A DNA stretch of 64,000 nucleotides from a virus, in IMG/VR virus record IMGVR_UViG_3300009184_000044, positions 4,394 to 68,393 of that record, one strand, 5' to 3'. Positions 50,334 to 55,115 of the stretch are shown one piece after another (within the stretch, counting starts at the first letter, position 1; every line of letters begins with the position of its first letter). The position numbers and the translations under genes are program-made. A model generated the notes under the pieces. That model worked only from the letters and a program-made list of their open reading frames with translations. It was not told the DNA's origin and did not search any database.

Positions 50334-50672
50334 ATGCTAGAAAACCTTATACCTAAGGATTACCCTGATTTTGAAGAGCATGGAACCCCTCCTTGTGCTG
50401 AGTCATTCCCGGATGCATTCTTTACGACAGACAAGAGTGAATCTTCTGTCTTGAGAAATGGCAAAGTTTCTATGAAAACTTGGGCTAGGTATGACTATGA
50501 AAAAGAGGCTAAAGCTATCTGTGCTGAATGTCCTTACAAAAAAGCCTGTCTAGAGTTTGCCCTAAAGTATTCAGAAATTGGTATCTGGGGTGGAACTACT
50601 GAGCTAGAGCGTAGAAGAATGCGACCAGCTCATAATTTAGGTTCAACTAGCCAGCCTCGTCCTAGAGTATAA
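50334..50672 (+). CDS. whiB: second WhiB-family transcription factor
   Basis: PPCAESFPDAFF, AKAICAECPYKKAC and GIWGGTT..ERR motifs. Confidence 0.9.
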   Translation: MLENLIPKDYPDFEEHGTPPCAESFPDAFFTTDKSESSVLRNGKVSMKTWARYDYEKEAKAICAECPYKKACLEFALKYSEIGIWGGTTELERRRMRPAHNLGSTSQPRPRV

Positions 50673-51490: not shown

Positions 51491-51790
51491 GGGGATGACT
51501 GGTTTCGACAGTTGTCTTGATGTTAGTGAAGCAAGCAGAAACGGCCACGCATTCTTAAAGTGTGGTAAAACAATAAATGCTGAACGTACTTCCGCATTCG
51601 CTCTAGCCGCGTGATTTAATCGCAACGCTTAGGCCCCTGACAAAGCACTAGTTCTAGGTGGGCAGTCAGGTTTTAAATAAATAGAACAACCCTCTCGTAG
51701 TGCCCTGCAATACCGTGGTTGGTAAAACCTAAGCTTGTAGAAGAATAACTGAATGTCAATTGGACCGGGGTTCGATTCCCCGCATCTCCA
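51491..51790 (+). ncRNA. ssrA: tmRNA
   Basis: 5' GGGGATGACTGGTTTCGAC. 3' T-arm CGGGGTTCGATTCCCCG and CATCTCCA give a 7-bp acceptor with G3:U. The tag ORF at 51579-51614 reads AERTSAFALAA*, after AATAAAT. Confidence 0.95.
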
Positions 51791-51848
51791 CGCTTGTAGA
51801 CAGAGGAGCGTAAAGCGGTCTACCCGTCCTAGGCAACGGAATCTCCAA

Positions 51849-51920
51849 GGACTGGCGTAGCCAAGGTGCTACGAGTCGATTCGGTAAGTAGTAGTCGGTA
51901 GTGCAAATCTACACAGTCCA
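51849..51920 (+). ncRNA. tRNA-like RNA lacking a canonical anticodon arm
   Basis: Acceptor GGACTG/CAGTCC plus discriminator A; D-like TAGCCAAGGT; T-arm GTAG-TGCAAAT-CTAC; 72 nt. Confidence 0.55.
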
Positions 51921-51955
51921 CTCATGTAACATAAAACTATCTGGGAGGATACAAC

Positions 51956-52363
51956 ATGAAGAATAAAGTAGTAATAACATTAGTAACACTAGTAAGCCTA
52001 GTTGTAGGTGGAGTGGCAACAGCAATGTTTTTGCCTAAGCCATTTAGCGACCTTACCGTAGAAAAAGAGATTCCACAGCCTCTTGACTCCAAGGAGCGTG
52101 CTATATGGTCAAAGGAGCACTTTTTAAAGATACTCAAGGAAGATTTCCCTGCAACCACAGAGAATTTCTCTGACGAATTTTTGCTAGAAGGAACTCTTGA
52201 TGTATGTCGCATTGGTGATTTGTCATACAGTTCTATTGCCGAAGATGTATCAAACAAGTTTGGCGTTCCTACTAGCCATCAGTTTGTTGATAGTTACATC
52301 GGATTCTCGGTGATTTACTTCTGTCCACAAGAAGATAACATCATTTGGGTAATCAAGAAGTAG
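51956..52363 (+). CDS. secreted / membrane-anchored protein (DUF732-like C-terminus)
   Basis: N-terminal signal/TM helix; L..G..VC and Y/FCP C-terminal pattern; SD ggagg. Confidence 0.55.
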   Translation: MKNKVVITLVTLVSLVVGGVATAMFLPKPFSDLTVEKEIPQPLDSKERAIWSKEHFLKILKEDFPATTENFSDEFLLEGTLDVCRIGDLSYSSIAEDVSNKFGVPTSHQFVDSYIGFSVIYFCPQEDNIIWVIKK

Positions 52364-52372
52364 TAAAATAAA

Positions 52373-52798
52373 TGTGAGTGATTCGCCCCTCGTCACTCTT
52401 GTAACTTCGGGTAGTATCTCGTTGCTATCGCAAGGGGCACTTTTAGGCTCTTTACTGCTGAGTCCACAAGACCAACCAGCAGAGCGAAAGCTTGAGACGA
52501 CCCGCAAGGGTGGGAACCTCTGGAACCAAGGTCCAAACTTGGGAAAGGTCAGTACTAGGTCTTCCAAATTTGGCGTGTCGAATTTGACAAGATTCAAATC
52601 TTTTGATACGCTGTAAGCAACAAGTTCTCGACGGAGAACTTGGAGTATGGCAGAATCGCTCCCACCGCCAGTGGGGGAGAAATGCAGTCTTGGCTCTTAG
52701 CGGAGTGGTTTAGCGACCAAACAAGATGTCTGCTCAAAGCGGTACTTAGAGAACCGCTGGCTAGGCAGTGATGGTAAAACGCAGTCCATCTACTCACA
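52373..52798 (+). ncRNA. large structured non-coding RNA candidate (about 430 nt; possibly two RNAs)
   Basis: At least 10 helices including GNRA-capped hairpins and a 5'/3' closing stem. TAAAAT -10 at 52364 and a terminator at 52801. No credible ORF. Confidence 0.75.
52584..52612 (+). promoter_or_regulatory. sigma-A type promoter inside the ncRNA region
   Basis: TTGACA (52584-89), 17 nt, TACGCT (52607-12). Confidence 0.55.
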
Positions 52799-52800
52799 CT

Positions 52801-52840
52801 AACCCCTTCCACTTCATTGTTGGTAAGGGGTTTTTACTTT
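52801..52840 (+). terminator. intrinsic terminator of the ncRNA
   Basis: aaccccttccac-ttcatt-gttggtaaggggtt followed by tttacttt. Confidence 0.75.
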
Positions 52841-52944
52841 AATCTTGTATAAATTTAGGATTAAGGTTATAACTAATTTGAGTTGCAAATCTTTGTACAG
52901 GATGATACCTTATGATTATTACCTATAAAGATAAGGAGAATACA

Positions 52945-53355
52945 ATGACTGACGGATACCAACCAGACTTTGACCATGATTTAGAGCGTGGAAAGGTAGG
53001 GGAGAGCTTACTTGGGACGTTCCTTGGCGACTTGGCTGATGGAGCTAAATTTGAAGTAAAGACTGACTACCTTGCTAAAGAGTATGGAAACTTCTACATA
53101 GAATGCCAGCAATTTAACTGGTCGGATGAATCAGACCTTCGGGACTCTGGGATTAGAACAACTAAAGCGGAGTGGTGGGTCTGTGCTGGTCCGAACGCTA
53201 ATGGGATGCTTGTTATACGTACTTCGGACTTGAAAGACTTGATTGAGGAAAAAGGTTACTCTTTAGGTAAGCAGCGAATAACTAATGACTTCACTAATGG
53301 CAGTTATGGCTACAAAGTAAAAGTCGTCGACGTGCTTAAGAAATTAGGGTTCTAA
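52945..53355 (+). CDS. PD-(D/E)XK nuclease-like protein
   Basis: FD.DL..G..GE, FEVKTD, GNFYIE and SGI.TTKA.WW; SD aaggag before ATG 52945. Confidence 0.6.
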   Translation: MTDGYQPDFDHDLERGKVGESLLGTFLGDLADGAKFEVKTDYLAKEYGNFYIECQQFNWSDESDLRDSGIRTTKAEWWVCAGPNANGMLVIRTSDLKDLIEEKGYSLGKQRITNDFTNGSYGYKVKVVDVLKKLGF

Positions 53356-53903: not shown

Positions 53904-54398
53904 ATGATACACCCTGAAACAAATCCTCACGACCCGTGGGGAAAGCAGTGGGTACCAACTAAAAAGGTATCCGCACCTAAGGTAATCACTATTGATGACC
54001 TATTCCCACGCATTGAGCGTTGGGGAATCGGATGGGAGCCCGTCCTTCAGTCGCTACGCACTGTAGCCGAAACCAAGCCAAACTACCCTCCATACAATAT
54101 CGTCAAGGATGGCGACAAGTATGAAATCGTTATGGCTGTTGCTGGGTTCAAGAAGGACCAAATCGATGTTGAACTAACTGGTAGAGACCTAGTCGTGTCC
54201 AGTGCAGTTGATGTTGAAAAGGCAGATATCCGCGACGTAATCCACCAAGGCATTGCTCAAAGGAACTTCAAAGTAACCTTTTCGCTTGCTGAGCATGTTG
54301 AAGTGAAGTCAGCGAAACTTGCTGATGGACTTTTGACTATTAAGCTAAAGATGGAACTTCCGGAAGAAAAAAAGCCGAAAGTCTTTGAGATTGAATAA
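53904..54398 (+). CDS. hsp20: small heat-shock protein (Hsp20/alpha-crystallin)
   Basis: NYPPYNI, MAVAGF, HQGIAQRNF..TF.LAEHVEV..A.LADGLL.I motifs. Confidence 0.95.
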   Translation: MIHPETNPHDPWGKQWVPTKKVSAPKVITIDDLFPRIERWGIGWEPVLQSLRTVAETKPNYPPYNIVKDGDKYEIVMAVAGFKKDQIDVELTGRDLVVSSAVDVEKADIRDVIHQGIAQRNFKVTFSLAEHVEVKSAKLADGLLTIKLKMELPEEKKPKVFEIE

Positions 54399-54455: not shown

Positions 54456-55115
54456 ATGGAAACTCTTGACCCTGGCTTAGCCCTCTTATATGCACGCGTT
54501 TCTACGCAGTTGCAGGTGAATGATGGCGTATCGCTGGATGTACAGGAAAGGCAGTTGATTACAGCTGCTGAGTTCCACGGATTCACTCGTTGGGAAATTA
54601 TTCGTGAGGAAGGTCGTTCTGGTAAGAGTATTACTGGTAGACCTGCCCTTACAGCCGCCCTTAGTCGCCTAGAGACTGGTGATGCTCAGGCATTGTTCGT
54701 TACTCGTATTGACCGCCTAGCTCGTAGCACAACGGACTTCTTGGACATCGTTGATAGGGCAAACAGGAAAAATTGGCGTTTGATTATGCTAGACCTAAAT
54801 CTAGACACTTCTTCTTATCAGGGGCGTTTCGTGGTTACGATTATGTCTGCTTTGGCTGAGATGGAGCGTGGAATCATTTCTGCTCGTCAAAAGGACATCC
54901 ACAAGGATAGACGAGACCGCGGGGTGAAGTGGGGCGTTGATATGGGCCCTAAGAATAAAACTCCTGAAGAAGTAAAGAATAGGGTATACTCCGAACGAAG
55001 TCGTGGCCGCACCTATCGTGATATAGCTAACGGACTGAATGCTGATGGGATATTGGGGCAAAATGGGGGAAAGTGGTACCCGACCACAGTAAAGAATTTG
55101 TTGGATAACGAGTAA
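54456..55115 (+). CDS. serine recombinase (resolvase/invertase-like), leaderless
   Basis: YARVST..Q, SG...RP.L and RIDRLARS, with a C-terminal IA..LN.DG...GKW..TTV domain. TAAACT lies 6 nt before the ATG. Confidence 0.9.
   Translation: METLDPGLALLYARVSTQLQVNDGVSLDVQERQLITAAEFHGFTRWEIIREEGRSGKSITGRPALTAALSRLETGDAQALFVTRIDRLARSTTDFLDIVDRANRKNWRLIMLDLNLDTSSYQGRFVVTIMSALAEMERGIISARQKDIHKDRRDRGVKWGVDMGPKNKTPEEVKNRVYSERSRGRTYRDIANGLNADGILGQNGGKWYPTTVKNLLDNE

Follow-up and report, generated by a model that had tools for sequence, protein, structure and literature searches.

Positions 52373-52840 of a 64,000-nucleotide (nt) stretch of DNA from the IMG/VR virus record IMGVR_UViG_3300009184_000044 (the whole stretch is called the window here) are crowded with complementary segments, and the question raised by this locus is whether they make up one large structured RNA or several smaller ones. 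A preliminary description had proposed a single ornate RNA of ~430-470 nt, which would belong to a new class or be a GOLLD-like RNA in reduced form, with its promoter at 52364 and closed by the pairing of tgtgagtg with tactcaca. We find instead that the interval is very likely part of a stable-RNA island, in which two independent RNA genes lie side by side with the signals that connect them. The first of these, named domain A, is on the strength of sequence comparison a separate, well-supported new small RNA family, and the second is a borderline and variant member of the manA family (RF01745). The island reads, in order: transfer-messenger RNA (tmRNA), transfer RNA (tRNA)-like element, open reading frame (ORF) 135 with its private tail, domain A, promoter, manA and terminator (Table 1).

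The interval and its modules

Domain A and manA occur together in 17 listed contexts, and neither their distance nor their order is fixed, with tRNA genes or ORFs between the two in relatives. The gap measures 50-70 nt with a promoter in between in six of the 17, and 289-406 nt in another nine, where the intervening sequence contains a tRNA and an additional promoter, among other elements; it reaches 1211 nt in locus L110, and in L039 the order is reversed, with manA ending 2 nt before domain A. Locus L003 has domain A followed by a minus-strand ORF and contains no manA, and in five full contexts manA is placed between a mini tRNA-like helix and a tRNA-Gly gene, which starts 47-49 nt later. 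Each module also has pairing support of its own. For domain A, 98.8% of 1280 alignment cells are paired and 22/33 pairs have changed on both sides, and this level of pairing was reached by none of 500 shuffles, with slid controls at 31-53% paired. For manA, 88.9% of cells are paired in 14 sequences and 31/50 pairs have changed on both sides, again matched by 0/500 shuffles and with slid controls at 33-45%; the poor score of a single manA helix (columns 125-130) is due to a shift in the MAFFT alignment.

The proposal of a single RNA can draw on the fold of the whole interval, which is better than that of shuffled sequences (z -4.0), on its minimum free energy (MFE) structure, which uses the closing stem, on the real 8-bp complementarity between 52373-80 and 52791-98, and on the six contexts in which the two modules are adjacent. 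However, the 5' arm of the closing stem is located in a stretch without homologue, and the UACUC of its 3' arm (52791-95) is used by the closing stem of manA, where it pairs with GAGUA (52643-47) in the family consensus and in all 14 relatives. Furthermore, a promoter stands between the modules, which elsewhere are separate, at variable distance and in either order, the TAAAAT at 52364 is not accompanied by a -35 box, and there is no match to GOLLD or ROOL. We consider a single RNA of this kind very improbable: the region looked like one ornate fold because adjacent independent elements, the promoter dyad included, were read as one.

Several individual observations of the preliminary description hold. 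All the helices it named are present in the sequence, the interval is indeed richer in GC than its surroundings (0.485-0.51 across 52400-52800 vs 0.34-0.43 in the flanks), its mechanical ORFs (e.g. 52374-52616, 80 aa) have no Pfam match, and a non-coding, structured and conserved RNA near a tmRNA/tRNA-type gene was correctly recognised. What does not hold is one RNA with one promoter, as there is a row of separate modules. The stretch 52365-52444 gave no blastn match in any of ~168 fetched loci and its fold is unremarkable against shuffles (z -0.77); the hairpin gagtga/tcactc and its pseudoknot gcccct/aggggc are both contained in it, as is the 5' arm of the closing stem. The TAAAAT read as a -10 box overlaps the stop codon of ORF135, and nothing resembling a promoter was detected at this place by the promoter scan. 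The dyad gcgtgtcgaa/tttgatacgc does exist (z -3.26), but it overlaps TTGACA-N17-TACGCT, the promoter of manA, and was read as a helix in the preliminary description.

Comparison with known families separates the two halves as well. A permissive Rfam search of 52200-53000 (E<=10) gave no match to GOLLD, ROOL, raiA, OLE, RNase P or group I/II introns, and none of these was found at gathering score in the whole window, in agreement with the earlier remark that RNase P and intron signatures are missing, and in disagreement with a reduced GOLLD-like RNA. The suggested novelty was lost for the 3' half, which matches manA over its full length, and was retained for the 123 nt of domain A, without a match. 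A blastn search of 52300-52900 against 50,697 named phage records likewise found nothing. A single large RNA is not supported by these data, which describe an orphan family that was already known, here in a new host group, and one new small RNA family.

Domain A and the tRNA genes around it

Domain A consists of a three-way junction (S1, H1 and H2), a hairpin (H3) and a variable arm (H4), which in four short forms is swapped for a GAAA-capped stub. The loop of H1 pairs with the 3' end of the RNA, and this pseudoknot (PK2) covaries among the relatives (AGACC/GGUCU, AAACC/GGUUU, GAACC/GGUUC and CCCCC/GGGGG). The same loop probably pairs with the strand after H3 as well (PK1), and pairing of the 5' GG with the 3' CC (P0) is possible; PK1 and P0 never vary in register. 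Four helices of the preliminary description, ctgctg/cagcag (52455-60/52477-82), (g)agc-GAAA-gct(t), accc-GCAA-gggt and ccaag/cttgg, covary in the relatives, and stand as helices of domain A rather than of a larger RNA. Two other pairing schemes were tried and rejected. ACCU/AGGU with CUGG/UCAG at the base of H4 was mismatched in many sequences and was replaced by the covarying H4a, and in a mapping like that of the hepatitis delta virus (HDV) ribozyme it was found that GGCUC pairs with the GAG after H2 instead, with changes from U-A to C-G and from C-G to G-C.

The family first came to light in relatives that had been reached via the downstream ORF, as a block of 127 nt with 91% identity, and was then extended by motif scans of viral, metagenome and genome collections. 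The pattern GAGTCCACANNACCAAC matched 84 stretches, mostly by chance in coding DNA, which were filtered by downstream motifs. Covariance model R1 gave 63 domain A matches, one per locus, with 41 distinct sequences and scores of 50-160 bits. These sequences span 47-63% GC and share more than 40 invariant positions, long unpaired stretches included, while their 13 different lengths (103-138 nt) are not multiples of three apart, and therefore domain A is not coding. Domain A has no Rfam 15 match at E<=10, ribozyme classes included, and no Rfam match overlapped it in the 14 loci scanned (E<=0.01 or 0.001). With models R1 and R2 nothing significant was found in DSL-LC01, Pumpernickel, Bxz1, GodonK, Big4, Mimi, P-SSM2, Syn9, S-SM2, S-RSM4 or T4; the best score outside the clade was 14.6 bits (E 0.06), with a first-look filter that may miss weak relatives, and the complete relatives G001 and G002, included as positive controls, had one copy of domain A each. 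In literature searches, made by text and not by sequence, neither domain A nor RNA islands of such phages were found to have been described, and the term undescribed is used here on the basis of Rfam 15 and these searches.

The scan of genome contigs returned 18 stretches, of which only L154 was real (it is on the same contig as L145), and L168, from a Nanopelagicales metagenome-assembled genome (MAG), was a false positive in a coding region. Divergent GC-rich copies of domain A (61-63%) were seen in L104/L145/L154 and in L138, and one GC-rich copy belongs to a 25-kb contig that was assigned to a Betaproteobacteria MAG. The range of domain A may not be confined to actinophages.

With regard to its neighbours, domain A in the relatives is found 0-8 nt from tRNA, tmRNA or tRNA-like genes. 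Upstream, a tRNA, tmRNA or CAGUCCAC-type tRNA-like 3' end is present at most 8 nt before domain A in 16 of the 40 contexts with 30 nt of upstream sequence; downstream, a tRNA begins at -1 to +4 nt past its last base in 9/43 contexts, and half of the other 34 contexts (17) have a run of at least four T within 12 nt of its end. The trinucleotide CCA follows one base after PK2 (N-CCA) in 37/41 distinct sequences. ARAGORN calls no tRNA at domain A; on paper, H1 and PK2 could form one stacked, acceptor-like helix.

Some of the tRNA-like neighbours deserve separate mention. In L076, L117, L069, L086 and L128, 3-5 nt separate domain A from the end of module B, which in the window is the tRNA-like element downstream of the tmRNA, and whose 3' end AGUCCAC repeats the GAGUCCACA motif of the H1 loop of domain A. 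Locus L003 contains two copies (1670-1755 and 2055-2138) of an 84-nt tRNA-like element (GGACUGUG...CGCAGUCCAC) around a small ORF, the second of which ends 3 nt upstream of domain A. In most related loci a tmRNA is positioned 1-821 nt upstream of domain A.

In the route that we propose, domain A would be cut from tRNA/tmRNA operon transcripts by the enzymes that process tRNAs. Cleavage by RNase P at the 5' end of a following tRNA would leave domain A with the 3' end ...N-CCA(A), the 5' end would come from 3'-end processing of the tRNA-like element before it, and a U-run may end the RNA where no tRNA follows. Once freed, domain A would remain as a stable and compact RNA, comparable to rnaC and rnaD in the tRNA cluster of phage T4. 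Excision as a discrete stable RNA is in our view probable. As to its function, a protein- or enzyme-binding RNA which presents a tRNA-acceptor-like helix with NCCA is a guess, and an unlikely one.

Two other readings of domain A were considered. HDV-like ribozymes downstream of phage tRNAs reportedly free the 3' ends of these tRNAs, and domain A could similarly be a self-cleaving ribozyme or processing element which cuts at its own 5' edge and releases the 3' end of the preceding RNA. That edge (an invariant A-G, then GC) follows 1-7 nt after an ARAGORN-called tRNA or tmRNA in 11 loci and after a tRNA-like element in six further contexts, and, as in a catalytic core, many unpaired bases are invariant and the double pseudoknot is compact. 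Nevertheless, no Rfam ribozyme family was matched at E<=10, the HDV fold has in our own reading another order of helices, such cleavage would explain neither the 3' NCCA nor the exact abutment to the next tRNA, and no recognised tRNA-like element is present just upstream in 24/40 contexts, and we regard self-cleavage as quite improbable. The second reading takes domain A as structural punctuation (a terminator, insulator or exonuclease block), which protects neighbouring RNAs without having a function of its own. Its three-way junction and the pairing of a hairpin loop with the 3' strand are reminiscent of exonuclease-resistant RNAs, domain A is situated at the borders of RNA genes, and the T-runs after half of the copies without a following tRNA are in agreement with such a role. 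However, so many invariant positions across sequences of 47-63% GC exceed what a mere block would need, the 8-9 nt between PK2 and the U-run are unlike an intrinsic terminator, and domain A is also found tightly between two tRNAs, where a terminator would be unwanted. Punctuation as the sole role is, in our judgement, improbable.

The manA RNA and its signals

The match of the window to manA runs from 52624 to 52800 and covers model positions 1-192 of 192, with a score of 55.4 bits vs a gathering score of 55.2 (E 2.6e-13). It came from the permissive Rfam scan and was over the cut-off in a second search, and the whole-window scan in gathering mode did not list it. The third hairpin of the inner junction (model positions ~98-115) is deleted, so that the junction holds two hairpins rather than three, and this variant architecture is common to the relatives, which scored over the cut-off in five of eight (L006 64.9, L092 67.0, L124 66.4, L150 62.8 and L083 62.3 bits) and just below it in three (L110 54.0, L039 52.6 and L075 52.0 bits). 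Many of the helices listed in the preliminary description are those of the Rfam consensus (caagttctc-GACG-gagaacttg, ctccc/gggag, gtcttg/caagat, agcggt/accgct and gatgg/ccatc), and hold in the 14 relatives. The pair of hairpins that it noted for identical TTAGCG loops are the two junction hairpins, and the motif carried by both loops is UAGCG. No manA was found in DSL-LC01 or Pumpernickel. Locus L140 has at 3904-~4160 an RNA which starts like manA (P1 hairpin and GGAGUGUGGCGGAAU) and has long internal insertions, without a manA score at E<=0.001.

Upstream of manA we predict a SigA/sigma-70-type promoter, from which transcription would start at ~52619-21, about 7-9 nt after the -10 box. It is located within the dyad 52572-52612, and the promoter block is 91% identical before manA in L110, while L150, L092, L124 and L140 have TTGACA-N17-TAAAGT at the same distance. 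Downstream, the U-tailed terminator of the preliminary description was confirmed by folding (-15.1 kcal/mol, z -3.2, followed by UUUUU), even though the consensus scan had missed it, and six relatives (L150, L092, L124, L075, L144 and L083) also have terminators behind manA, with sequences unrelated to it. Taken together, promoter and terminator would delimit a free-standing RNA of ~215 nt, a reading for and against which we see the balance as roughly even. In one of four metatranscriptome runs a 164-nt contig corresponds to 52637-52798 only, with 2 mismatches, a weak hint of manA as a discrete RNA.

A mini tRNA-like element with an acceptor stem, one hairpin and a T-loop of the UUCAAGA/UUCGAUA type, and without D-arm, is seen ~55 nt upstream of manA, and ends 5 nt before it in L123, L134/L007, L139, L006, L122 and L083. 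In five of these loci (not L083) manA is followed by a conserved hairpin (CACUCCAC...GUGGAGUG) and then by tRNA-Gly.

The alternative for manA is a cis-acting riboswitch, as was first proposed for the family, in which a ligand or other signal would decide between termination at 52801-52835 and read-through to ORF147, ORF146 and hsp20. This would suit the terminator, which follows only 5 nt after the last aptamer helix, and the hsp20 gene, which is found downstream both here (PF00011, E 5e-15) and in L110. Cyanophage P-SSM2 has its manA (181.6 bits) 16 nt before an ORF and hsp20 450 nt downstream, and the genes listed downstream of manA by Weinberg et al. (2010, PMC2864571) include ibpA chaperones and nucleotide-synthesis genes. 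Against it, the next gene is tRNA-Gly in the five full contexts, tRNA-Asn in L092 (54 nt) and domain A in L039, and downstream protein genes vary among loci. In the window a conserved promoter-like motif (52847-71) separates the terminator from ORF147, no anti-terminator pairing is obvious by eye, and the RNA contig is confined to manA, the last being a weak argument. We see a riboswitch at this position as possible, although doubtful.

Combining both halves, domain A would found an undescribed class of RNA in phage tRNA/tmRNA operons, which is freed by the tRNA-processing machinery and also acts on it, be it as acceptor mimic or decoy or as a new ribozyme, while manA would be a free-standing, trans-acting RNA. 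This full version is less likely than not. A number of results also speak against the reading of the interval as two independent RNA genes. For domain A, the MFE fold of the RNA alone is no better than that of shuffles (z -0.24), the likely PK1 pairing is without sequence variation, and the conserved CC of the CCA is equally explained by pairing with the invariant 5' GG (P0). One of the 24 contexts without a recognised upstream element (L029) has an apparent tRNA-like element by eye; in view of these 24 contexts, excision by tRNA enzymes is not the sole route. For manA, the consensus promoter scan did not call TTGACA-N17-TACGCT because its -10 box fits the consensus at only 3/6 positions, and the hsp20 link in the window, L110 and P-SSM2 fits a cis-regulatory role. 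Adjacency in 6/17 contexts leaves room for a functional link between the two RNAs. Finally, the RNA runs are assembled contigs, which give no starts, ends or strand and may contain DNA, and the four runs had no contig on domain A, on module B past 51822 or on ORF135, a gap which proves nothing.

The RNA island, its phage and comparable RNAs

The tmRNA is the first element of the island, just upstream of the interval, and is covered by contigs in 4/4 lake metatranscriptome runs. Module B, which follows it, recurs at 88-99% identity in more than 20 loci; its cloverleaf has the acceptor GGACUG/CAGUCC and the T-loop UGCAAAU, and in the RNAalifold structure 6/32 pairs have changed on both sides. 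In L005 and L006 the gene directly before domain A encodes a weak relative of the ORF135 protein (29% identity over 73 aa, E 3e-7), and a search for relatives anchored on this protein returned none. Behind the terminator is a 25-nt motif, copies of which precede various genes in more than 10 related loci, and which is a candidate phage-specific promoter or operator for downstream genes. The Hsp20 gene of the window is at 53904-54395, and is also present in 12 related loci, ~0.2-3 kb from the RNA island and on either side of it.

Table 1. Positions and characteristics of the RNA island elements in the window
Feature	Position	Strand	Characteristics
tmRNA gene	51491-51793	+	Rfam RF00023 (115.6 bits) and ARAGORN; tag peptide AERTSAFALAA
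Module B	51794-51921	+	Two hairpins, then tRNA-like cloverleaf not called by ARAGORN
ORF135	51956-52363	+	Protein gene between module B and domain A; no Pfam family
Private tail behind ORF135	52364-52444	+	Contains the -10 box, first hairpin, pseudoknot and closing-stem 5' arm of the preliminary description
Domain A	52445-52567	+	123-nt doubly pseudoknotted RNA; 3' tail U-CCA-A, CCA at 52564-66
Domain A, P0 (possible)	52446-47/52564-65		
Domain A, S1	52448-50/52494-96		
Domain A, H1	52455-60/52477-82		
Domain A, H2	52483-85/52490-92		
Domain A, H3	52500-03/52508-11		
Domain A, PK1 (probable)	52463-65/52512-14		
Domain A, H4a	52520-21/52547-48		
Domain A, H4b	52526-30/52538-42		
Domain A, PK2	52469-73/52558-62		
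SigA/sigma-70-type promoter (predicted)	52584-52612	+	-35 TTGACA (52584-89), 17-nt spacer, -10 TACGCT (52607-12)
manA RNA (RF01745)	52621-52800	+	Rfam full-length match; two-hairpin variant of inner junction
Intrinsic terminator	52801-52835	+	Stem 52801-52832, 3' end running into UUUUU
25-nt conserved motif	52847-52871	+	Between terminator and ORF147; 88-96% identical copies elsewhere

The window is part of a 68-kb virus record, for which completeness is estimated at 51%, and several lines point to an uncultured freshwater actinophage as its source. A Pfam search of the window proteins identified a WhiB gene (50334-50669), and WhiB is described in one account as restricted to actinobacteria and their phages (PMC10611076). 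The DNA polymerase I of the window is 76% identical to the enzyme of Actinomycetia phage DSL-LC01, with Microbacterium phages next best, and the DNA runs which contain the window stretch carry freshwater or lake metagenome labels. Other genes encode a class II ribonucleotide reductase, a glutaredoxin, Hsp20, a serine recombinase and a siphovirus-type tail protein. The WhiB-type regulator together with the serine recombinase (54456-55112) suggests a temperate actinophage.

The manA of this phage resembles the known motif in that the whole model is matched, with the same P1 (GACG loop), GAGUA/UACUC stem, inner junction and 3' hairpins, and in being phage-borne with hsp20 and nucleotide-metabolism genes nearby. 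It differs by its score at the threshold (55.4 bits, vs 181.6 bits in P-SSM2) and by the missing junction hairpin, by its host, a freshwater actinophage and not a marine cyanophage or a member of the gamma-proteobacteria, and by its surroundings. Rather than simply forming a 5' untranslated region, it has its own promoter and terminator or is flanked by tRNA-like and tRNA genes; in the window it is separated from ORF147 by the terminator and the promoter-like motif, and in the relatives the next gene is often a tRNA.

The closest parallels to domain A come from phage T4, where rnaC and rnaD (139 and 119 nt) are of similar size, are similarly positioned in a tRNA cluster and have a similar 3' end: rnaD begins 1 nt behind tRNA-Arg, has ACCA as its last bases and is followed by rnaC. 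The roles of these two stable RNAs, also called species 1 and species 2, are given as unknown in one published account (PMC3014915). There is no homology with domain A, as the best match of R1 in T4 has 9.4 bits on the wrong strand and that of R2 10.3 bits elsewhere in the genome, and the double pseudoknot was not seen in the T4 RNAs, which were not folded here. By analogy, domain A may be regarded as an RNA of the same kind, being non-coding, part of a tRNA cluster and abutting tRNA genes. In viral tRNA-like structures such as that of turnip yellow mosaic virus, pairing between the 3' strand and a hairpin loop allows two helices to stack, and the RNA ends in N-CCA. Domain A likewise has a 3'-terminal strand that pairs with a hairpin loop, and an N-CCA end, but it is without an evident T-loop or anticodon-like arm, has three bases between the stacked helices, and its CC may pair with the 5' GG (P0) instead. 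GOLLD and ROOL are also phage-borne, non-coding and found near tRNA-type genes, whereas the RNAs described here have no Rfam match to these families, and are separate molecules of 123 and ~180 nt rather than one of 500-800 nt.

Since 2010 the manA motif has had the status of an orphan riboswitch candidate, found in marine cyanophages and a few gamma-proteobacteria, and its range is now widened. Its presence in freshwater actinophages offers a testable alternative, a stable trans-acting RNA which is possibly tied to hsp20, and if true, such a free-standing role would give a new direction to the search for a manA ligand, now 15 years old. For domain A, the abutment to tRNA genes and the NCCA end make tests of RNase P cleavage, self-cleavage and CCA addition simple. 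The island as a whole suggests that these phages use tRNA-like punctuation to make a number of stable RNAs, in the manner of rnaC and rnaD in T4.

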